From Patescibacteria group bacterium (GTDB taxonomy: Bacteria > Patescibacteriota > Microgenomatia > Curtissbacterales > GWA2-41-24): a DNA stretch of 64,000 bases. The notes beneath the pieces are model-generated. The model had not been told where the DNA came from and made no database searches. It was given only the letters and a program-made list of their open reading frames with translations. The DNA is taken from positions 953 through 64,952 of the forward strand of contig JBBTUN010000005.1 in the NCBI GenBank assembly GCA_038063735.1, read 5' to 3'. Within the stretch, counting starts at the first letter, position 1, and each line of letters starts with the position of its first letter. This document shows, piece by piece, positions 5,394-35,192 of the stretch. A program made the translations under genes and the position numbers.

Positions 5394-6305
5394 ATGACGG
5401 CCTATACCCAAGTATCTGCAAACAAACTCAAAACGTGGTTAATTATGTTTTTCTTTGCCACATTTTTAACAGCAGTTATTTTTATCTTTGCCAGTGCGTG
5501 GGGGTTTGATTATCCTTCTGCGCTAAGCTTTTCGGGATTTGCACTAATTATCGCAGGCATTATGAATTTTTTTAGCTATTACAACAGTGACAAAATTGTT
5601 ATGGCAATATCCGGCGCCAAACAAATTCAAAAAAAAGATGACCCAACGCTGTTTAGAACAATAGAAAACTTAAGTATTGCCTCCGGTTTACCAATGCCGA
5701 AGGTTTACATAATAAACGACAGCGCGCCCAACGCGTTTGCAACAGGTCGTGATCCACAGCACGCAGCAATTGCTTTTACAACCGGAATTCTCGAGAAGCT
5801 CAATAAATTAGAATTAGAAGGGGTAGCGGCGCACGAACTTTCACACGTGGGCAATTACGACACTCGCCTTATGGCAATTGTATCGATTCTCGTTGGAACA
5901 ATAGCATTGGCAGCTGATTTTTTCCTGAGAATCTCCTTCTTTTCCCGAGGTGACAGAGACGACGACAGGCAAGGCAATGCAATTTTTATGGTGCTGGGGC
6001 TGGTAATGGCAATTCTTGCACCAATTGTGGCGACGCTAATTCAACTAGCTATCTCCCGCAAAAGAGAGTTTCTGGCAGACGCATCCAGTGCACTTTTAAC
6101 ACGCGATCCGGATTCTCTTGCCAACGCTCTACTTAAAATTTCAGCAGACAAAGAACCACTGGAAGTTGCCAATAAAGCAACAGCGCACTTGTATATTACA
6201 AACCCGCTAAAAAATAACAAAGACGCAAGGAGTATGTTTGCCAATCTCTTTAACACTCACCCACCGATTACCGATAGAGTAAAAGCCCTACGCGCAATGC
6301 AATAA
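5394..6305 (+). CDS. htpX: zinc metalloprotease HtpX (M48 family)
   Basis: TM helices, 'HELSHV' HEXXH zinc motif, and C-terminal 'NTHPPITDRVKAL'. Confidence 0.85.
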   Translation: MTAYTQVSANKLKTWLIMFFFATFLTAVIFIFASAWGFDYPSALSFSGFALIIAGIMNFFSYYNSDKIVMAISGAKQIQKKDDPTLFRTIENLSIASGLPMPKVYIINDSAPNAFATGRDPQHAAIAFTTGILEKLNKLELEGVAAHELSHVGNYDTRLMAIVSILVGTIALAADFFLRISFFSRGDRDDDRQGNAIFMVLGLVMAILAPIVATLIQLAISRKREFLADASSALLTRDPDSLANALLKISADKEPLEVANKATAHLYITNPLKNNKDARSMFANLFNTHPPITDRVKALRAMQ

Positions 6306-6310
6306 CAAAT

Positions 6311-6604
6311 ATGTCAAAAGTCAAAATAGATATTAATCATATTGCAAAGCTAGCAAATTTACCGCTGTCTGCGGAGGAAGAAAAAACTTACGACAAACAA
6401 TTAACCGCCATTTTAGAATATGTAAAGCATGTCGAGTCTGTCGACACAAAAGACGTAGAACCAACGTTTAACGTTACCCCGAACAAAAATATTACTCGCA
6501 AAGACACTGCGAGTAAATCTCTTACTCAAGACGAAGCATTAAATAACGTATCAAACAAAAAAAATGGTTTTGTGGTAACCGGAGGGGTCTTTGAAAATGA
6601 GTGA
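6311..6604 (+). CDS. gatC: Asp-tRNA(Asn)/Glu-tRNA(Gln) amidotransferase subunit C
   Basis: Small protein 'IDINHIAKLANLPLSAEEEKTY...' immediately upstream of and overlapping gatA. Confidence 0.8.
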   Translation: MSKVKIDINHIAKLANLPLSAEEEKTYDKQLTAILEYVKHVESVDTKDVEPTFNVTPNKNITRKDTASKSLTQDEALNNVSNKKNGFVVTGGVFENE

Positions 6605-7946
6605 TTTAACTCAACTTACTCTCACAGAAACAATCAGCGGTTTGGAGAAAAAAGATTTTTCTACAGAGGAACTAAACGGTGCATATTTAACAAGAATAAA
6701 AAAACTAAACCCAAAACTTAATTCATATTTATTTGTAAACGAAGAATCTAACAAAATTCCCGCTGCAATTAAAGACATTATTTCGGTAAAAGGGATGCCT
6801 TTGACCTGCGGCTCAAAAATCCTGGAAGGTTATATTCCTCCATATAATGCTACCGTTATCAAAAAGCTAATGGCAAACAGCGTTTCTGTTCTGGGCAAAA
6901 CAAATCTTGACGAATTTGCCATGGGTTCATCAGGTGAAAACTCAGCCTATGAGAAAGCGAGAAATCCTTGGGATGTTTCAAAAGTTCCGGGTGGATCATC
7001 ATCCGGATCCGCAGTCGCTGTTGCCGCGGATCTTTGCGCTTTTGCACTTGGAACAGATACTGGTGGTTCCATCCGTCAGCCTGCATCTTTATGCGGAGTT
7101 GTTGGTCTCAAACCTAGTTACGGAAGGGTTTCCAGATACGGCGCCCAGTCAATGGCGTCGTCGCTTGACCAGATTGGGCCAATCACGAAAACTGTAGCCG
7201 ACGCAAGATTAGTTCTCAATTGGATTGAAGGGGCAGACGGAAAAGACAACAACGCAGTCCCAAATCCCAAATCCCAAATCCCAAATCCCAAATCGATAAA
7301 AGGTACAAAAATCGGTGTGCCGATTGAGTACTTTGCAAAGGGGCTGGATCAAGACGTCGAAGAAGTAATCAACACTGCCCTAAACAAATTAAAAGACCTT
7401 GGCGCAGAAACGGTAGAAGTGTCTCTCCCCCACACGCAATATTCCGTGGCAACTTATTATCTACTTATGGCCTCTGAAGTATCTTCCAATTTGGCAAGGT
7501 ATGACGGCATTCGTTTTGGAAAAGACAGGAGTAAGTTTGGACCGGAGGCAAAAAGAAGAATAATTCTGGGAACATTTGCACTGTCTGCAGGGTACTTTGA
7601 AGATTATTTCATAAAAGCTGCAAAAGTGAGAACTCTTATCAAACAGGATTTTGAAAAAGCTTTCCAAAAGTGCGACGTTATCGCCGGCCCTGTCTCGCCA
7701 ACAGTTGCCTGGAACTTAGGCGAAAAAATCAGCGACCCCCTAACAATGTACCTTTCCGATATTTACACGCTCTCAGCCTCACTTGCCGGTATTCCGGGCC
7801 TTTCCGTCCCTTGCGGTTTTTCGGCTGGTCTTCCGGTCGGTCTCCAACTGCTTGGCGAATATATGGACGAAGAAACAATATTATCAGTTGGTGAAATCTA
7901 TCAATCTGCAACAGATTGGCACAAACAAAAACCGGGTTTGAATTAA
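6591..7946 (+). CDS. gatA: Glu-tRNA(Gln) amidotransferase subunit A
   Basis: Amidase signature 'GGSSSGSAVAVAADLCAFALGTDTGGSIRQPASLCGVVGLKPSYG'. Contains an in-frame heptanucleotide repeat (listed separately). Confidence 0.9.
   Translation: MKMSDLTQLTLTETISGLEKKDFSTEELNGAYLTRIKKLNPKLNSYLFVNEESNKIPAAIKDIISVKGMPLTCGSKILEGYIPPYNATVIKKLMANSVSVLGKTNLDEFAMGSSGENSAYEKARNPWDVSKVPGGSSSGSAVAVAADLCAFALGTDTGGSIRQPASLCGVVGLKPSYGRVSRYGAQSMASSLDQIGPITKTVADARLVLNWIEGADGKDNNAVPNPKSQIPNPKSIKGTKIGVPIEYFAKGLDQDVEEVINTALNKLKDLGAETVEVSLPHTQYSVATYYLLMASEVSSNLARYDGIRFGKDRSKFGPEAKRRIILGTFALSAGYFEDYFIKAAKVRTLIKQDFEKAFQKCDVIAGPVSPTVAWNLGEKISDPLTMYLSDIYTLSASLAGIPGLSVPCGFSAGLPVGLQLLGEYMDEETILSVGEIYQSATDWHKQKPGLN
7259..7293. 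repeat. tandem heptanucleotide repeat (CCCAAAT)x5 inside gatA, encoding 'PNPKSQIPNPKS'
   Basis: Directly visible: five perfect CCCAAAT units at 7259-7293 followed by a partial unit. Confidence 0.9.
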
Positions 7947-28716: not shown

Positions 28717-28859
28717 TGTCTGCCCACGATTCTGCCCTTCAAATATCTCAGGATAAACGCTGTTTACCCTGAGCAATGGTGAGTGAAATCGAACCAGAGT
28801 CGAAGGAGAATCAAGTATTTACCTAACTCAAATCATTATACTCAGCTTTAGCTATCTCG
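28717..28859. repeat. cassette-boundary repeat X1 (long form)
   Basis: Shares 'TGTNTGCCCACGATT...GCC', '...CCTGAGCAATGGTGAGTGAAATCGAACCAGAGTCGAAGGAGAAYCAAGTATT' with X2 and the 5' and 3' blocks with X3/X4 ('CAAATCATTATACTCAGC'). Confidence 0.7.
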
Positions 28860-29880
28860 TTTTAATGGCGACAACACAACCAACTATACCTGGGTCTGTT
28901 CTCGTCCTTTGTGCTTCAAAGGCACTACCTTCATACAAATTAGGCATATCGGAATTAATTTCAACGTTGAAATTCTGAAGTAAACCATTAATGCGCTCCA
29001 GCGCCCTCACTCGTTTTGTGTACTCTTGAAGGGAATTTCCTGTTCCCACAGTTATCAGCAAACAACCGTTTGGTTTTAATTTTCCCAAAAACGTTTTCAA
29101 AAGCTTATCAACTTTTCTGTCTTGCTCTCTTCTCTCTTTCCTTTTTACTACTGCGTTTGGGCCTTGAGGATAAATTATTTCTGGATCCATTCTGTTCCAA
29201 AAAATAGTCTGCAAATCGCCCGGGATCAATTCTTTTGTTAGAGCCTCTCCCAGGGATGTGCCAATAAAGAATACTTTATCCTCAGGAACTCCAAAATTTT
29301 TATTAGCTTCATCAAACGCGGAAAGATTTCTTAAGTTTGGCTCAACAGCCACTGCTTGACCACCTACAACAGCGGGTTTTTTATCAAGCCCTGCAAAGGT
29401 ATTAGCAATGGCAACAAAAGCTGCATCTGCTCTGCTAAGAATAGCTACTATGGACTCCTTGCTGGGTGCCTCAATGTAACAGGCAAGGACCTCCGGAGTA
29501 GTTTTTCCTGATCCTATAAAAGCTTTGTCTCCACCTCTTGGGCTGCCAGTAGCAAGCTCAACAGTTCTTACAAATAAGTAAAAGTTAGCAAAATGCGGAA
29601 AGGATGCAGCAATTAGAGGATATTCAACTTCGATGGCAGAGATTTCCAGCTCTGAACGTTTTTTCGCTTCTGCAGCACTTAATTTTTCTCGTTCAAATAA
29701 GTAGTCATATTGGTGAGGGTTTTTTACGAGAGCTCGGTTTATTGAAGCCAGTCTGTGTATACTCTCTGCTGATACTGCTGCCCGAACATTATCTACATTA
29801 GTATTATCAACGCCTAAAAAACTCTCGTGAGGTACAAATAACCCATGCGATGAAAGCTCGCTCCGTTTCCTGTCAGACAT
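28852..29880 (-). CDS. hypothetical cassette protein with P-loop-like 'AFIGSGKTT' motif
   Basis: 342-aa ORF flanked by repeats X1 and X2. The Walker-A-like motif is the only recognisable feature. Confidence 0.5.
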   Translation of the reverse strand: MSDRKRSELSSHGLFVPHESFLGVDNTNVDNVRAAVSAESIHRLASINRALVKNPHQYDYLFEREKLSAAEAKKRSELEISAIEVEYPLIAASFPHFANFYLFVRTVELATGSPRGGDKAFIGSGKTTPEVLACYIEAPSKESIVAILSRADAAFVAIANTFAGLDKKPAVVGGQAVAVEPNLRNLSAFDEANKNFGVPEDKVFFIGTSLGEALTKELIPGDLQTIFWNRMDPEIIYPQGPNAVVKRKERREQDRKVDKLLKTFLGKLKPNGCLLITVGTGNSLQEYTKRVRALERINGLLQNFNVEINSDMPNLYEGSAFEAQRTRTDPGIVGCVVAIKTR

Positions 29881-29920: not shown

Positions 29921-30056
29921 GGCCCCACCATTTTCGCCCTCCTCCACTCTTCGAGCTTCGGATGGTTAAACAGTGTTTATCCTGAGCGATGGTGAGTGAA
30001 ATCGAACCAGAGTCGAAGGAGAACCAAGTATTCTCCGAACGAATTTAATATTCAGG
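29921..30056. repeat. cassette-boundary repeat X2 (long form)
   Basis: About 60 nt nearly identical to X1 (4 mismatches in 'TGTTTAYCCTGAGCRATGGTGAGTGAAATCGAACCAGAGTCGAAGGAGAAYCAAGTATT'), plus the shared 5' 'CCCACSATTTTCGCCC' block. Confidence 0.7.
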
Positions 30057-30063
30057 TTCCTCA

Positions 30064-30357
30064 TTGTCTACAGTGATTGGAACAATTCTTGAAAAGTTGA
30101 TGTATAATATTCGTATGAAAACATATATAACATCTAGTCCTGAAATAATGTCGGGTGCACCTGTTATTGTCGGCACTCGTGTCCCTGTCGCCCGAATTGT
30201 TTATCTTTTGAAGGATGGTTTTACGATGGAGCAAATAAGCAAACAATTTCCGCATGTCGGTCTAAAAAGATTGCGGGGTGCCGTGAATGACTTGGCTAAA
30301 AAAGTAGAAACTATTCCTTATGGTACGCAAATTTCACAAACACAAGCTACTGCTTGA
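30064..30357 (+). CDS. DUF433 domain protein (antitoxin-like)
   Basis: 'ITSSPEIMSGAPVIVGTRVPVARIVYLLKDGFTMEQISKQFP' matches the DUF433 pattern. The true start is probably the internal 'MKTYITSS'. Confidence 0.7.
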   Translation: MSTVIGTILEKLMYNIRMKTYITSSPEIMSGAPVIVGTRVPVARIVYLLKDGFTMEQISKQFPHVGLKRLRGAVNDLAKKVETIPYGTQISQTQATA

Positions 30358-30682
30358 TGAAGGGTTCCCTGTCCGTTCTTATTGCCCTATTTTGAATAGA
30401 CGCTTTGATGTTAAGCATATTACCCAAGATTTTAAACAAGTAAGTTTATCAGACAAACAAGTACACGAATTTGCGGCAGAACACAACAGGATTGTCGTGA
30501 CATTAAATATTAAAGACTTTAAACCGCTTTCCCCAACAAACAAAAATACGGGAATAATCGGTGTTTCAGCAGGATTACAGTTTAAACAAGTTGATAGAAA
30601 ACTTACTGCGCTTTTGAATAAATCTACTAAAAAACAGCTGTTGGGCAAACTTACCATTATAAGTGGCGAATCACAAAAGTAA
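30320..30682 (+). CDS. DUF5615 (PIN-like / Mut7-C-like) domain protein (toxin-like)
   Basis: 'KLLLDEGFP...HITQD...NRIVVTLNIKDF' matches the DUF5615 pattern. Overlaps the DUF433 gene, the usual two-gene arrangement. Confidence 0.7.
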   Translation: MVRKFHKHKLLLDEGFPVRSYCPILNRRFDVKHITQDFKQVSLSDKQVHEFAAEHNRIVVTLNIKDFKPLSPTNKNTGIIGVSAGLQFKQVDRKLTALLNKSTKKQLLGKLTIISGESQK

Positions 30683-30776
30683 GTTTCGACAAGCTTAACC
30701 TTCATATTTTAGGAAAGACATTAAACCCTAATTGGGTTACGTCACGCACGATAAGTGGTACTTCGACAACGACCTC

Positions 30777-30898
30777 TGTGACCCCACGATTTTCGCAATG
30801 GAACCAGGCATTTGTCGAACTGAAGTCGTTGTATTCAGCTTTGAGCCAGCCTCAAGAGCCGAACTTAAGCTATCTCCAATTGGGAAGTTGAACTACGG
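30777..30898. repeat. cassette-boundary repeat X3 (short form)
   Basis: 'TGTGACCCCACGATTTTCGCAATGGAAC...CTATCTCCAATTGGGAAGTTGAACTACGG' is collinear with X4. The 3' end overlaps the HDAC-like stop codon. Confidence 0.7.
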
Positions 30899-31837
30899 TA
30901 GCCCAGAAAAGAAGCTCTCAGCTAATTTTCCAATACTCTTTGTATCATATCCTCCTTCTTGAACAAATAAAGTAGGGAGGTTTAATGCTGCAATTTTATT
31001 GGCCATTTTTTTATAGAATGGTCTTGTGAGTGAAAATTTACAAATAGGGTCACCAATGTAGGTGTCAAAGCCCAAAGATACTACTAAGTACTCAGGGCTG
31101 AAATTACTTACTTTTTCCAGAGCTTTTATCAAAGTTTGTTGGTATTTTCTCTCTCCAGTATTTAGTGGAAGCGGGAAATTAAAATTGTATCTCTTTCCAT
31201 CGCCTTCACCTTTCTCTCTAGAGTAGCCAGATTTATGAGGAAAAGCAGCTCTTGGTTCTGCATGGATAGAAACAAACAAAATATCTGATCTTTTATAAAA
31301 CATTTCTTGGGTACCGTTGCCGTGATGATAATCGACGTCTAAAACAGCCACCCTGCCCCTTTTCGATAAGTAGTTTGCCGCAATCGCAGCATTGTTGAAA
31401 AAACAATATCCTCCCATCATCGATTTTCTTGCATGATGTCCTGGGGGGCGACAAAGGCTATAAACAAACATTTCTCCCAGTACTAATCTTTTTGCTCCCG
31501 ACAGCGCAACATTCACCGAAGATTTAGCAGCATCGAATGCCCCATGGGTAATGGGTGTATAAGAATCAAAAGAATAACTGTTTAGAAAAAACTCATCATG
31601 TGTTTTTATTGAACTCGACTTAAGGAAATTCAAGTAACGTTTCGTGTGAAGAGATAGTATCCAAGATTCTCTAAAGCTCCATGCTTTGGCAATCATAACG
31701 CCTTGATTTCTCAATTGTCGCAAAATATTTTCAACTCTATCGGGAACTTCTGGGTTATTTATCAACTCACCATTGAATAATTCCTTTTTCGGTGAATGTT
31801 TTTTGTGTAGCGGAGAATAAACAACTCTAATGCTCAT
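30893..31837 (-). CDS. histone deacetylase / acetoin utilisation (AcuC) family amidohydrolase
   Basis: 'CRPPGHHA', 'VLDVDYHHGNGTQ', 'VSLGFD', 'QEGGYD' (HDAC/arginase-deacetylase fold). Confidence 0.85.
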   Translation of the reverse strand: MSIRVVYSPLHKKHSPKKELFNGELINNPEVPDRVENILRQLRNQGVMIAKAWSFRESWILSLHTKRYLNFLKSSSIKTHDEFFLNSYSFDSYTPITHGAFDAAKSSVNVALSGAKRLVLGEMFVYSLCRPPGHHARKSMMGGYCFFNNAAIAANYLSKRGRVAVLDVDYHHGNGTQEMFYKRSDILFVSIHAEPRAAFPHKSGYSREKGEGDGKRYNFNFPLPLNTGERKYQQTLIKALEKVSNFSPEYLVVSLGFDTYIGDPICKFSLTRPFYKKMANKIAALNLPTLFVQEGGYDTKSIGKLAESFFSGLP

Positions 31838-32835
31838 CTTAGTACCTCCTTCGTGTCTGGTCTTGAGTAGTATTTTTCAATATTTTCAGGAGGTAGGTGC
31901 ATAAAGGTGAAGTCCCTGAGGCCTTTGGGATCAATGCCGTCATTTACTTCAACGTTTTGACAAAGTATTTGCGGAAAGCTATTCTGGTCGTACCTTCTTT
32001 CTGGGACAACAAAGCCTGCTCCATTTGCCGCTCTATCTGAGCGTGACATAAAATTACACTCGGCAAAAATCAGGAATTCTTTTCCTCGTAAATCCCTGAT
32101 GACCTGCGAATTTAGGTGAGCTATGGTTGCAGTTATAAATCCTTGATTTTCATAGCCCTCCAGAGTCTTCCATTCTGTATTTTCAATTAAGTCGACATAC
32201 CCACTACTTGTTCTTAATCTCAATTTTTCTGCCATAGCAGCAGCTACTATCACTCCATCTTTTGTCGCTGAGCTAAACCAAAGCGACCTTCCAATACCAC
32301 GTTCTATATCGCCGTTTAGTCTTCTCCTTAAAGCAGTGATTTCTTCGCCAGACCATCCAAATGTTCGTGACCACAGATTAAGTAGTTGAGCTTCTTGCTC
32401 AGCTGTAAAGGTTGAATTGAAACTGACACCCAAATCCTCAAGCAACCTAACTCTTTCGAATGCACGTCTTGGCTTGTTAACGTAACTGCTAGTTTCTTTC
32501 ACCATTTGAGCTACAGGCACGATAGGTTTTCGACTAACACCATTGTGGGCAGCTAAAATTATCCAGTCATTACCAAATGGCACTATAACTTCAATTTCAG
32601 AAGCAACCTCGGCTGGCATTTTTTGAAAGACATCGTTTGTGACCAGTGATCTAAAAACGACTCGAGAAATCCCGGCTAGTGAGCCTAAATTTCTCAAACG
32701 TCCATAAGCTCGCGACAAAATATCAGGGTTATCTATTGGTGCGCCTTTCCAGTTCCAATAAAGCCTGTCAAAGCCTCTCCGTTTTAAACCAGCCTCTCCT
32801 GTGCTTGAAAAAATTTGTTCTTGTTCTTTTGTCAT
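31834..32835 (-). CDS. hypothetical protein co-transcribed with the HDAC-like gene (weak GNAT-like 'RGIGRSL' motif)
   Basis: Its stop overlaps the downstream HDAC-like gene's start codon by 4 nt (ATGA). No firm family. 'DIERGIGRSLWF' is reminiscent of the acyl-CoA-binding motif A of GNAT acetyltransferases. Confidence 0.5.
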   Translation of the reverse strand: MTKEQEQIFSSTGEAGLKRRGFDRLYWNWKGAPIDNPDILSRAYGRLRNLGSLAGISRVVFRSLVTNDVFQKMPAEVASEIEVIVPFGNDWIILAAHNGVSRKPIVPVAQMVKETSSYVNKPRRAFERVRLLEDLGVSFNSTFTAEQEAQLLNLWSRTFGWSGEEITALRRRLNGDIERGIGRSLWFSSATKDGVIVAAAMAEKLRLRTSSGYVDLIENTEWKTLEGYENQGFITATIAHLNSQVIRDLRGKEFLIFAECNFMSRSDRAANGAGFVVPERRYDQNSFPQILCQNVEVNDGIDPKGLRDFTFMHLPPENIEKYYSRPDTKEVLR

Positions 32836-32842
32836 TTTTTAC

Positions 32843-32880
32843 CACTAAAAAACCCCTCATGTGAGGGGCTATCCTTTTTG
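32843..32880 (-). terminator. hairpin CCCCTC-atgt-GAGGGG followed by a T-run on both strands (intrinsic-terminator-like), 10 nt upstream of the 32835 start codon
   Basis: 6-bp GC stem with a 4-nt loop at 32853-32868. The minus strand has TTTTTT immediately 3' and the plus strand has TTTTT 5 nt 3'. Confidence 0.5.
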
Positions 32881-33096
32881 TGAAATTTAGTCTAAAACTA
32901 GTCCACAACCAAGACGCCCCTGTTGGGGTTTTTCTTGGTTTTGTTTTTAGAAACTAAATAAATAGCCATTTAATGTTTGAATAGTAACAAATACTAATGA
33001 ACATAGTCAAATCTTTTGAGGCTAAAGTCTATTAAACCAAAGAGCTACTCGAACATTTTAGCTTCAAAAAATGTTAAATGGTTTTTAATTTGAGGC

Positions 33097-33219
33097 TGTG
33101 TGCCCACGATTTTCGCAATGGAACTTGGTATTCTCTGAACCCAAATCATTATACTCAAGCCTAAACGTGCCTACCAAAAAATGAACTTGGCTACCTCCCA
33201 CTGGGAAGTTGAACTATAG
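33097..33219. repeat. cassette-boundary repeat X4 (short form)
   Basis: 'TGTGTGCCCACGATTTTCGCAATGGAACTTGGTATTCTCTGAACCCAAATCATTATACTCAAGC...TCCCACTGGGAAGTTGAACTATAG'. Internal direct repeat 'AATGGAACTTGGTATTCTC' / 'AATGAACTTGGCTACCTC'. Confidence 0.7.
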
Positions 33220-33226
33220 TTTTAAT

Positions 33227-33481
33227 TTACCTTGAAAGAGAAAAGACCCAAGGCTTTAATTTATCCTTAGTTTCTTCTACCTCAATTACCTTTTTACCTG
33301 ATTTCAAAAGTGATTTGATCAAGTTCTGATTTTCTTCATTAAGTTCCTCATCATCAGCTGAAAATACCACATAAGAAGTATCTTTTTTTAAGTTCTTTAC
33401 CTCATCTGGATTTTTTTGCAGATAGTCTGCTAACCTGGCAGAAAGATTAATATTTTTTTGTATTTGTGTATTCTTACTCAT
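33227..33481 (-). CDS. small acidic hypothetical protein (antitoxin-like partner)
   Basis: 84-aa ORF located 70 nt 3' of the next gene and abutting X4. Confidence 0.4.
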   Translation of the reverse strand: MSKNTQIQKNINLSARLADYLQKNPDEVKNLKKDTSYVVFSADDEELNEENQNLIKSLLKSGKKVIEVEETKDKLKPWVFSLSR

Positions 33482-33551: not shown

Positions 33552-34034
33552 TTATTTTCTCTTTTTGTTACTTTTCTTGAGGCTATTTAAATAGCCATTT
33601 TTATAATTTAAATACCTATTACTAATATCTTTCACGGCCCAAGTTAACCAATCATTAGAACCACCTTTTTTGATTACACCCACTGTGTTAGTAATTGGTT
33701 CACCGGATCTGAGTCTACTGTGACGGTGAAGAAAACCATGTTCACTATCATATCTACAAAGAGTTTTCCACTTACCTTTGATTAATGTTTCGTACGAGAC
33801 ATTAATAACTTCGCTTACTTCGTTATTGACATCTAGCTGATAAATATATGTAACTCTGTCTGTTCTATCAGAGCTCAACATAAATTGTTGACCTTTCTGG
33901 CTCTTAGGTAATTTAGACAGATCAGGGGTTGCGAGTTCTAGATTTTTCTGTCGTTTAACTAAATGTTTTACAGTCTCTTGCTTTGAAAGTACGACAAACG
34001 ATTTTCTCGGATTCCGATGTGTTCTTCTCCCCAC
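33552..34034 (-). CDS. basic hypothetical protein with C/H cluster 'CRYDSEHGFLHRH'
   Basis: 160-aa ORF 52 nt from tRNA-Glu. No family recognised. Confidence 0.45.
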   Translation of the reverse strand: MGRRTHRNPRKSFVVLSKQETVKHLVKRQKNLELATPDLSKLPKSQKGQQFMLSSDRTDRVTYIYQLDVNNEVSEVINVSYETLIKGKWKTLCRYDSEHGFLHRHSRLRSGEPITNTVGVIKKGGSNDWLTWAVKDISNRYLNYKNGYLNSLKKSNKKRK

Positions 34035-34085
34035 AATATTTAAGATTATAAAGTATTTTACGTGGTATAAACAAAATAAGTTCTG

Positions 34086-34157
34086 TGGCCCTACGGGGAG
34101 TCGAACCCCGCTTTGGACCTTGAAAGGGTCCCGTCCTAACCGATAGACGATAGGGCC
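34086..34157 (-). tRNA. tRNA-Glu (anticodon UUC)
   Basis: Minus-strand sequence GGCCCTA-T-CGTC...GACG-G-GGACC-CTTTCAA-GGTCC-AAAG-CGGGG-TTCGACT-CCCCG-TAGGGCC-A folds as a cloverleaf with a 7-bp acceptor stem. CCA is not encoded. Confidence 0.85.
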
Positions 34158-35093: not shown

Positions 35094-35169
35094 CGGGTCT
35101 GTAGCTCAACAGGTAGAGCAGTTGCCTTTTAAGCAATTGGTTGAGGGTTCGAGTCCCTCCGGACCCACC
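35094..35169 (+). tRNA. tRNA-Lys (anticodon UUU), CCA encoded
   Basis: GGGTCTG-TA-GCTC-AACAGGTA-GAGC-A-GTTGC-CTTTTAA-GCAAT-TGGTT-GAGGG-TTCGAGT-CCCTC-CGGACCC-A-CCA cloverleaf. Confidence 0.85.
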
Positions 35170-35192
35170 AAGGTACAAATTACTTTCCCTCT

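Follow-up and report, generated by a model that had tools for sequence, protein, structure and literature searches.

A putative lysine attenuator precedes a conserved gene pair for a predicted GNAT-fold protein and an HDAC-family deacetylase in Patescibacteria

Introduction

Enzymes that place an acetyl group on an amine and enzymes that take it off again may act as protect/deprotect pairs, as do ArgA/ArgE and, in Bacillus subtilis, the tetrahydrodipicolinate N-acetyltransferase DapH together with N-acetyl-diaminopimelate deacetylase. Here we describe a two-gene operon in 64,000 nucleotides of DNA from a Patescibacteria group bacterium (contig JBBTUN010000005.1, positions 953 to 64,952; assembly GCA_038063735.1), a stretch that is called the window throughout. 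The first gene encodes a 333-aa protein, referred to as the partner, and the second a Zn-dependent deacetylase of the HDAC family. Linkage of the two genes is obligate in Patescibacteria, their order is fixed and they frequently overlap, and they are preceded by a leader whose predicted structure resembles that of the classical amino acid attenuators, with lysine as the amino acid sensed. The reading that we favour, which in our judgement stands an even chance of being right, is that they constitute a lysine-starvation-induced acetylate/deacetylate pair serving lysine supply, encoded by a chromosomal, vertically inherited and Patescibacteria-specific operon.

Among characterised enzymes, the acetylpolyamine amidohydrolases (ApaH) come closest to the deacetylase. 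The polyamine-deacetylase cluster (cluster 4) has been described as carrying the motifs RPPGHH, EGGY and PIS and an extended L2 loop, the polyamine-specificity loop (Graf et al., PMC11532494). The L2 loop gives rise to a head-to-head dimer through an R95-D163 salt bridge, and a further residue, E/H106, sits on it (PMC11532494).

The gene pair and its conservation

The two open reading frames (ORFs) lie on the minus strand of the window, the partner gene at 31834-32835 and the deacetylase gene at 30893-31837 (314 aa), where a first-pass annotation of this DNA had placed them, and the 4-nt stop/start overlap that it had described can be read directly from the sequence: plus-strand positions 31834-31837 are tcat, which is ATGA in the coding sense, the TGA of the partner gene and the ATG of the deacetylase gene sharing 4 nt. 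What reads as a strong Shine-Dalgarno motif of the deacetylase gene, AAGGAGGT, is found within the 3' end of the partner gene at 31844-31851 (minus strand), 6 nt 5' of the ATG. Translational coupling, also suggested earlier, is probable given the co-conservation of the genes and the overlaps or short gaps between them in related loci. All the protein strings quoted in that annotation were located: the deacetylase has RPPGHHA (residues 130-136), DVDYHHGNG (167-175), SLGFD (254-258) and EGGY (294-297), and the partner has DIERGIGRSLWF (176-187). The partner is identical to the NCBI hypothetical protein AAB512_02780 of a Patescibacteria group bacterium metagenome-assembled genome. The isoelectric points of both proteins are widely spread and uninformative.

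Conservation of the pair was followed in 22 loci seeded with the partner, from six protein look-ups and 14 GTDB species genomes, and in 4 further long contigs reached through deacetylase homologues. The deacetylase gene was found directly 3' of the partner gene and on the same strand in 22/22 partner-seeded loci (L009 ends at a contig edge), and the partner gene upstream of the deacetylase gene in all four deacetylase-seeded contigs, so that the two are neighbours in 26/26 related loci, in one of them (L022) with only a remnant of the partner. Whether the pair recurs elsewhere had been raised in the first-pass annotation, and it is indeed strongly co-conserved. Gaps between intact pairs range from -23 to +53 nt, with ATGA in five loci, and the gap in L022 is 95 nt. 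In a comparison of 21 loci, the pairwise identities of the partner are correlated with those of the deacetylase (r=0.56; none of 2000 Mantel permutations as high). A metagenome scan with the deacetylase returned chiefly remote homologues of 30-40% identity, which served as a negative control for the partner; within the flanking DNA examined, the partner was found near 0/80 remote HDAC homologues (30-54% identical).

A word-indexed search recovered 16 partner clusters, all from Patescibacteria or Saccharibacteria, and an exhaustive profile search recovered 415 partner representatives at 50% clustering, 173 of them with E<=1e-30. With 415 family representatives and the pair in every related locus examined, its recurrence is far beyond chance. 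In other genomes the pair is situated among housekeeping genes (GreA, MurB, aminoacyl-tRNA synthetases, SecA, FtsK), with synteny at the level of the lineage.

Two observations on individual loci may be added. In L022, from Levyibacteriota, what is left of the partner is a C-terminal remnant of 72 aa (MSRSDRAANGA...; 6025-6243), the deacetylase is intact (6339-7295) and no leader was detected. Four contigs, L009, L010, L014 and L020 (CAZSXQ01, CAYRJZ01, CAZDTO01 and CAZLSZ01), are labelled 'uncultured Gammaproteobacteria bacterium' yet carry a Patescibacteria-type pair, and SBP-GreA synteny is common to L010 and the Patescibacteria loci L001, L006, L007 and L011; this taxon name has the look of a placeholder or a mislabelling.

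The lysine-codon leader

In the window and in 17 further loci, the operon is preceded by a conserved promoter, a small ORF with adjacent lysine codons and three hairpins. The element was found by folding the 90 nt 5' of each partner gene, which have in common CCCCUC-loop-GAGGGG-UUUUUU-AGUGG. On the minus strand of the window, a consensus scan and reading of the sequence point to a -35-like hexamer, TTGACT, at 33005-33010 and a -10-like hexamer, TACTAT, at 32981-32986, the latter ending 11 nt 5' of the ATG of the small ORF; most related leaders have TTGACA/TAnnnT boxes at equivalent spacing that end ~10 nt before this ATG. Because the -10 box ends so close to the start codon, the small ORF is expected to be near-leaderless. 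Its translation (32898-32969, minus strand) gives the putative leader peptide MAIYLVSKNKTKKNPNRGVLVVD, with four lysines in codons 8-13, and the candidate regulatory codons form the cluster AAA AAC AAA ACC AAG AAA (32931-32948, minus strand), of which AAG AAA makes up the 5' arm of the first hairpin, P1.

This arrangement is general. In 22/22 leaders there is a small ORF of 14-29 codons, started by ATG, with an in-frame KK just 5' of or inside the P1 5' arm; lysine accounts for 17% of small-ORF residues across leaders, and the frame is conserved at the lysine codons and not 3' of them, start and stop positions being variable. In the leaders of L001, L007, L010 and L011, located ~45-105 nt 5' of the partner ATG, the small ORF stops (TAA/TAG) within the P1 loop, which gives peptides of 14-15 aa, and in other lineages it continues through region 2; all of them keep the Lys-Lys frame.

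Three alternative helices are predicted in the window, all on the minus strand. The protector hairpin P1 (regions 1:2, 32910-32938) would pair the lysine-codon tract and CCCC with GGGG and CGUCUU (RNAfold -10.5 kcal/mol, z-score -3.8). In the antiterminator (regions 2:3, 32862-32922), the 5' arm of the terminator would be paired instead with the G-run at 32917-32920 and the sequence flanking it (RNAfold -25.8 kcal/mol, z-score -5.4), and the intrinsic-terminator hairpin CCCCUC-ACAU-GAGGGG with its U6 tract (regions 3:4, 32847-32870) ends 11 nt 5' of the partner ATG. These mutually exclusive helices were predicted in 15/15 folded leaders, in which P1 consists of the lysine-codon tract and a C-run paired with a G-run and UCUU, and the antiterminator has energies of -12 to -26 kcal/mol (z-scores -2.8 to -7.3). 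The flanks of the G-run and C-run vary by locus yet stay complementary (CGUCUU/AAGG..AG, CUUGGU/ACCAAA, CUAG/CUAG and UAGUUG/AACUA). RNAalifold, applied to a MAFFT alignment of the leaders, recovered the terminator alone, the other helices being missed because of register shifts in the alignment. The terminator motif CCCCTN{3,10}AGGGGYTTTT has a single match in the 64 kb of the window (32848-32868), where 0.01 are expected; 11 loci have one copy apiece and L017 has two. Every copy is found immediately 5' of the partner gene with the exception of the second L017 copy, which belongs to the leader of an aspartokinase-like gene. No Rfam 15 family matches the leader, and searches of the literature on lysine leader peptides, on deacetylases of the Candidate Phyla Radiation (CPR) and on CPR lysine biosynthesis returned nothing relevant.

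As far as folding and codon content can tell, the leader is thus built like the attenuators of the trp/his/leu type, lysine being the amino acid sensed, and a switch is predicted in which transcriptional read-through would respond to the charging of tRNA(Lys). When Lys-tRNA(Lys) is scarce, ribosomes would stall at the lysine codons in region 1, region 2 would be freed and the antiterminator would form, allowing RNA polymerase to enter the operon. When Lys-tRNA is plentiful, the ribosome would reach the stop codon and cover region 2, or hairpin 1:2 would reform; the terminator would then form and the operon would be off.

A small lysine regulon

A covariance model was built from 13 leaders and run over 681 kb. 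It recovered all the partner leaders, five of them outside the training set, and its matches were confined to pair-bearing loci, with none in 52 unrelated loci. Additional matches were found before aspartokinase-like AA_kinase genes (L012 8077-8167, L017 5351-5439 and L103 5940-6016) and, in L105 (5942-6018), before a 174-aa gene that is followed by a class I lysyl-tRNA synthetase (LysRS); the L012, L017, L103 and L105 leaders have Lys-rich small ORFs of their own, MILNFIKLTKKQVKKLKKLLFRG, MILNSIKLTKKTTKKALP, MHLVIVTKKTKTTP and MKFLTILKKIKKTP, respectively. A LysRS gene is also a recurrent neighbour of the pair itself. The class II enzyme (TIGR00499, above cut-off) adjoins it in L006, L012 and L017, and the class I enzyme in L001 (TIGR00467) and in L007 and L103-L105 (Pfam PF01921); in L001, L007 and L104 the LysRS gene is directly 3' of the deacetylase gene. 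That two unrelated LysRS classes with one function are found beside one pair is strong context evidence. The leader appears, from these predicted matches, to define a small lysine regulon that comprises an aspartokinase-like kinase, LysRS and the pair. An ArgE/DapE-type M20 deacylase was also found near the pair in some lineages, and a Pfam tally of 80 flanking genes from 13 loci gave no dominant family besides aminoacyl-tRNA synthetases, AA_kinase and MFS.

The aspartokinase-like kinase (L103 6038-6991) has no ACT domains, measures ~317-330 aa and scores below the NCBIfam aspartokinase cut-offs. Near it, a separate 219-aa protein (L103 2112-2771, minus strand) has no CBS domain and only weak ACT-domain matches, which resemble an aspartokinase regulatory subunit; homologues of the kinase and of this protein are present in L012, L017, L015, L018, L104 and L105. 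Together they may possibly represent a split aspartokinase. The 219-aa neighbour was also considered as an AcuB-like third gene of the pair and rejected, given its weak ACT matches and the lack of a CBS domain.

The deacetylase

The deacetylase matches PF00850 with 248.8 bits (E=1e-73), where the gathering score is 27.9, and has the complete catalytic set, H134/H135 (RPPGHH), D169/H171 (DVDYHH), D258 (GFD) and Y297 (EGGY), in agreement with the intact HDAC-type active site reported in the first-pass annotation; judged by its residues, the enzyme should be catalytically complete. In a PDB sequence search its nearest relatives are acetylpolyamine amidohydrolases (6PHR, 4.5e-77; 9GKZ, 3e-76; 3Q9B, 1.4e-68), the closest characterised of which span E values of 4.5e-77 to 1.7e-60, and the HDAC6 catalytic domains rank next. 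We take 9GKZ to be the Pseudomonas sp. ApaH (PsApaH) of Graf et al.

Several ApaH features are retained, among them RPPGHH (130-135), EGGY (294-297), PIC (264-266) where ApaH has PIS, and the equivalents of the aromatic tunnel residues Y168 and F225. The L2 loop, however, counts 8 residues against 33 in PsApaH (residues 75-107), the deletion site corresponding to residues 76-83 (31589-31612 of the window); R95 and E/H106 are gone along with the loop, Ser takes the place of D163, and F27 shows no conservation. In an alignment, this 25-residue deletion was present in 15/15 Patescibacteria deacetylases and in 0/9 ApaH-like outgroup enzymes, and the Patescibacteria proteins are accordingly shorter (~315 aa vs 341-348 aa). 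Substitutions specific to the clade are chiefly aromatic and reveal no substrate-binding charges. The enzyme may thus be placed, by its sequence, in the ApaH clade while failing the feature responsible for polyamine specificity.

These data bear on the proposal that the pair serves polyamine or diamine homeostasis, the GNAT-type partner acetylating and the ApaH-like enzyme deacetylating putrescine, cadaverine or spermidine, with lysine control explained by the lysine-to-cadaverine link. The kinship with acetylpolyamine amidohydrolases speaks for it, as do the RPPGHH, EGGY and PI(S/C) motifs and the tunnel aromatics just described. Against this stand the clade-wide deletion of the specificity loop with the accompanying losses, the partner, which resembles SpeG/SSAT-type enzymes in generic GNAT fold alone and has many invariant arginines, and the neighbours of the examined loci, among which no polyamine genes were seen; we regard the proposal as distinctly doubtful.

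The partner protein

The partner itself has no match in Pfam, NCBIfam, PADLOC or PDB, the last searched with the single sequence and with a profile, and the first-pass description of a protein with no recognisable family by direct sequence search holds. An AlphaFold (AF2) model built on 16 sequences has a predicted local distance difference test (pLDDT) score of 91.2 and a predicted template modelling (TM) score of 0.90. In this model, residues 137-314 follow the canonical GNAT order beta1-alpha1-alpha2-beta2-beta3-beta4-alpha3-beta5-alpha4-beta6/7. Foldseek returned 266 PDB matches at E<=0.001, the top 50 being all GNAT-fold enzymes or structural-genomics proteins aligned to GNAT domains; single-domain matches to RimI, Ard1, Naa60 and AAC(6') reach probability 1.0 and a target TM score of up to 0.73. 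Relatives of the partner match Pfam Acetyltransf_9 (37/100 family members, best 5.4e-9) and Acetyltransf_1 (13/100, best 6.6e-6) at residues ~155-255, in the C-terminal domain, the inspected matches lying under the gathering score. The C-terminal half (31894-32427, minus strand) is, according to the model, a canonical GNAT acyl-CoA N-acyltransferase domain, and use of an acyl-CoA by the partner may be inferred.

The motif-A loop, that is the beta4-alpha3 pyrophosphate loop, maps to residues 229-236, with the family consensus R(39%)-G(53%)-x-G(84%)-L-M-T-A; the partner itself has E-N-Q-G-F-I-T-A, which keeps the G (G232) that is 84% conserved. E218 on beta4 (with T220 and E221) and E259 on beta5 (with A258 and N261) mark the same domain, E218 and E259 being invariant in the family alignment. 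The first-pass annotation had suggested an acyltransferase-like protein on the basis of DIERGIGRSLWF, which it likened to GNAT motif A. That string sits at the alpha2/beta2 junction and is not motif A, but the structure prediction and fold search, which had been proposed as a check, return the GNAT enzyme fold and, together with the Pfam matches of relatives, uphold the assignment itself; the guess is right by the model, though it was made on the wrong evidence.

The N-terminal alpha/beta domain (residues 10-136; 32428-32808, minus strand) has invariant R24 and R58 and near-invariant S11, G13, G16, R20, Y26, R62, E82 and N98. Modelled alone (pLDDT 83), it gave no Foldseek match at E<=0.001 (best E 0.0096) and only weak partial GNAT-like matches. 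The many invariant arginines of the partner would fit an acidic (amino-acid or dicarboxylate) acceptor or the phosphates of CoA or RNA.

Whole-protein Foldseek matches include the tandem-GNAT proteins VipF, Sba18, an aminoacyl-tRNA-dependent peptide synthase, and FemX, and raise the idea that the partner is a Lys-tRNA-dependent transferase of the Fem, MprF or L/F-transferase kind, the deacetylase preparing or reversing the acceptor amine. The N-domain arginines could conceivably bind RNA, and the recurrent adjacency of LysRS of either class recalls the LysX fusion named in NCBIfam. Yet the whole-protein matches have TM scores of ~0.32 with root-mean-square deviations of 9-14 A, the N-domain alone has no significant fold match, the family matches acetyl-CoA-type GNAT Pfam models and keeps the pyrophosphate loop, and induction at Lys-tRNA scarcity would have the wrong sign for an enzyme that consumes Lys-tRNA. 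We find this idea very unlikely.

Acetate-CoA ligase, CoA genes and protein acetylation

In three loci an acetate-CoA ligase gene is located two genes upstream of the pair (L103 343-2115, L104 353-2107 and L105 363-2120; NF003313, an equivalog-level match with 821 bits vs a cut-off of 729). These ligases keep the PKTRSGKIMRR lysine motif. The adjacency to acsA concerns 3/26 loci, whose Acs proteins are ~80% identical and belong to one narrow lineage. CoA-biosynthesis genes are nearby in five loci; a fusion of pantetheine-phosphate adenylyltransferase (PPAT) and GTP-dependent dephospho-CoA kinase adjoins the pair in some lineages (L103 4965-5897, with homologues in L001, L006, L009 and L105).

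Such neighbours speak for a reversible protein-lysine acetylation switch like the Bacillus AcuA/AcuC system, in which the GNAT protein would be the writer, the deacetylase the eraser, and the target might be acetate-CoA ligase, at the lysine of its A10 motif, or a site in LysRS or in the translation machinery. A precedent exists for an operon that unites a GNAT with an HDAC-family enzyme beside acsA (PMC13121692). The ligase close to the pair has its lysine motif intact, CoA-biosynthesis genes are at hand, without the L2 loop the active site should be accessible to peptides, the best single-domain fold matches of the partner are protein N-acetyltransferases such as RimI, Ard1 and Naa60, and a cluster-4 ApaH is able to deacetylate AcsA K549ac (PMC11532494). 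On the other hand, the Acs adjacency is limited to the narrow lineage mentioned, there is no AcuB-like CBS protein, the 219-aa neighbour having merely weak ACT matches, the deacetylase falls outside the AcuC (class I) type, and a lysine-specific attenuator shared with aspartokinase would be unexpected for a general switch. This explanation is judged unlikely, while still the strongest competitor of the lysine-supply reading.

Genomic surroundings and mobility

The window is rich in housekeeping genes, including GatA/GatB, DnaE, enolase and PBP. The unit of promoter, leader and operon is bracketed by direct repeats of ~120 nt, the upstream copy at 33096-33216 and the downstream copy at 30776-30895, where it overlaps the stop codon of the deacetylase gene. 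The repeats fold no better than shuffled sequences and have no common structure (z-scores -2.2 to +0.3) and no attC-like fold; they match no Rfam entry and have no copies in the other loci. No integrase was found among the genes within ~8 kb, nor is there one in the 25 window families, of 76 in all, that were listed, and the PADLOC defence models gave no matches at E<=1. An integron gene cassette was considered and rejected, there being no attC-like hairpin, no integrase among the neighbours and no repeats elsewhere. Mobility of the operon is unsupported, and so is the 'mobile cassette' of the first-pass annotation, the neighbours examined having no integrase, the repeats no attC fold and the defence models no match, and the pair having a housekeeping context elsewhere.

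That annotation had further likened the pair to DarT/DarG or to GNAT-toxin systems, that is to a mobile cassette with a GNAT-type toxin and an enzymatic antidote. The repeats around the unit, its position in a variable stretch by tRNA-Glu and the toxin-antitoxin-like small genes nearby may be cited in favour, as may the fact that the partner is never found without the deacetylase, one locus having a decayed partner with an intact deacetylase. Other observations speak against it. There is no PADLOC match, no integrase among the neighbours examined and no attC-like fold in repeats that are absent from all other loci; elsewhere the neighbours of the pair are GreA, aminoacyl-tRNA synthetase, MurB and SecA genes, synteny holds at the level of the lineage and the two genes diverge together; known GNAT toxins are half as large as the partner; and the operon shares an amino-acid attenuator with aspartokinase. 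A toxin cassette is highly improbable. The lysine leader in common with aspartokinase-like genes and the LysRS neighbours favour lysine metabolism over the toxin analogy. Of the two alternatives offered earlier, the opposing-enzyme toxin module is not supported and a pathway of small-molecule acetylation and deacetylation is closer to the evidence.

Other features of the surroundings are as follows. Related repeats form a second family (28747-28851 and 29964-30040), consisting of 77-nt direct repeats that are 88% identical and each have a short palindrome, around a neighbouring 342-aa ORF (28852-29880, minus strand) with no Pfam, NCBIfam or PADLOC match. For this family, too, there is no attC-like fold, no Rfam match and no copy in the other loci. 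Just 3' of the deacetylase gene and convergent with it is a DUF433/DUF5615 gene pair (30064-30357 and 30320-30682, plus strand), probably toxin-antitoxin-like, and upstream of the operon are small genes for DUF5647 (33227-33481) and DUF7718 (33552-34034). The variable stretch holding the operon is flanked by tRNA-Glu(UUC) (34085-34157, minus strand) and tRNA-Lys(UUU) (35095-35170, plus strand).

Proposed function

In the favoured reading, lysine starvation would induce the operon through the leader, the partner would catalyse acetyl-CoA-dependent N-acetylation of an amine on lysine or on an intermediate of its pathway, and the deacetylase would remove the acetyl group from the same kind of amine by Zn-dependent hydrolysis. 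Two versions may be conceived: the enzymes could perform protect and deprotect steps, as in ArgA/ArgE or DapH/N-acetyl-diaminopimelate deacetylase, or lysine could be recovered from compounds of the N6-acetyl-lysine type. Either would lead to a greater lysine supply, and the acetate would be recycled by Acs where an Acs gene is present. The HDAC fold with its retained aromatic tunnel would favour a terminal acetamide on a linear chain, and N6-acetyl-lysine would fit better than N-acetyl-diaminopimelate.

Several points weigh against this reading. The HDAC fold normally prefers substrates such as N6-acetyl-lysine or acetyl-diamines over N-acetyl-alpha-amino acids, and the polyamine-type tunnel residues are kept. 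The link with lysine consists of regulation and gene neighbourhood only, and no gene of the diaminopimelate (DAP) pathway other than the aspartokinase-like kinases was found in the DNA examined. If the role were pure acetyl-lysine salvage, the need for an acetyltransferase would be unexplained, and the intact deacetylase beside the 72-aa partner remnant in L022 implies that the deacetylase may function alone. As to the leader, L015, L103, L104 and L105 have none in front of the pair, and an admittedly crude equilibrium simulation with ribosome masks gave a textbook switch in 3/15 leaders; a weak equilibrium switch is expected if the decision is kinetic, so the argument for a switch needs co-transcriptional kinetics. 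Among the competing explanations, we rank the protein acetylation switch above polyamine homeostasis, this above the Lys-tRNA transferase, and the toxin cassette last and well behind.

A more specific proposal is that the pair is a non-orthologous replacement of the N-acyl protect/deprotect branch of DAP/lysine biosynthesis, standing for the DapD/DapE or the DapH/N-acetyl-DAP deacetylase steps and controlled, together with aspartokinase, by the lysine attenuator. We put it forward tentatively, as something that is on balance improbable. If true, amino-acid biosynthesis would have in the deacetylase its first enzyme of the HDAC fold, and presumed amino-acid auxotrophs would possess regulated de novo lysine/DAP synthesis.

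Patescibacteria (CPR) account for much of bacterial diversity, yet for most of their conserved hypothetical genes there is no clue to function, and regulatory RNAs are barely known in the phylum. An unnamed family of 415 representatives with no Pfam or NCBIfam model gains here a predicted fold, an obligate enzymatic partner and a candidate physiological signal, lysyl-tRNA limitation. The data further suggest that ApaH-clade deacetylases may have been recruited outside polyamine metabolism, and a pair of 'function unknown' is turned into a testable question of lysine or DAP supply.

Comparison with known systems

Both enzyme superfamilies are known, and acuABC is a precedent for an operon that combines a GNAT with an HDAC-family enzyme. 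What is new is the unnamed two-domain GNAT family, a loop-less ApaH clade tied to it, and a putative lysine leader that links the pair to aspartokinase and LysRS. The deacetylase has its catalytic core in common with ApaH (3Q9B from Mycoplana ramosa, 9GKZ and 6PHR; E 1e-69 to 1e-77), from which the Patescibacteria clade differs in the missing L2 loop, the shorter chain and the GNAT partner that always precedes it. Likewise, the pair resembles B. subtilis acuABC in the co-transcription of a GNAT with an HDAC-family deacetylase and, in one lineage, in the proximity of an acetate-CoA ligase; its components, however, are not orthologous, the deacetylase being ApaH/HDAC6-like and the partner a two-domain protein without sequence ties to known families, AcuB is missing, and control is by a lysine leader.

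With ArgA/ArgE and the DapH-type pairs the operon would share the logic of placing acetyltransferase and deacetylase under joint control of the amino acid that is the end product, whereas the DapH-type pair is built from a left-handed beta-helix enzyme and an M20 enzyme in place of a GNAT and an HDAC fold. The partner is similar to the tandem GNATs VipF, MshD, FemX and Eis in its size of ~330 aa and in joining an active-looking C-terminal GNAT domain to an N-terminal alpha/beta domain, and differs from them in that its N-domain has no significant match and in the absence of sequence similarity. The GNAT toxins (TacT/AtaT/ItaT) and DarT/DarG offer a likeness in the abstract idea of a modifier beside a possible reverser only; size, architecture, gene order, genomic stability and regulation are all different, and PADLOC gives no match.

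The leader, finally, has a functional likeness to the lysine riboswitch and to T-box leaders. It agrees with the trpL, hisL, leuL, thrL and pheL attenuators in the codon-rich small ORF over region 1, in the predicted alternative 1:2, 2:3 and 3:4 helices, in a U-run terminator right before the structural genes and in preceding several genes of one pathway, and it is set apart from them by its lysine codons, its near-leaderless small ORF and its Patescibacteria host; it appears, on the strength of these predicted features, to add to the classical attenuator class a new member that has lysine as its regulatory codon.

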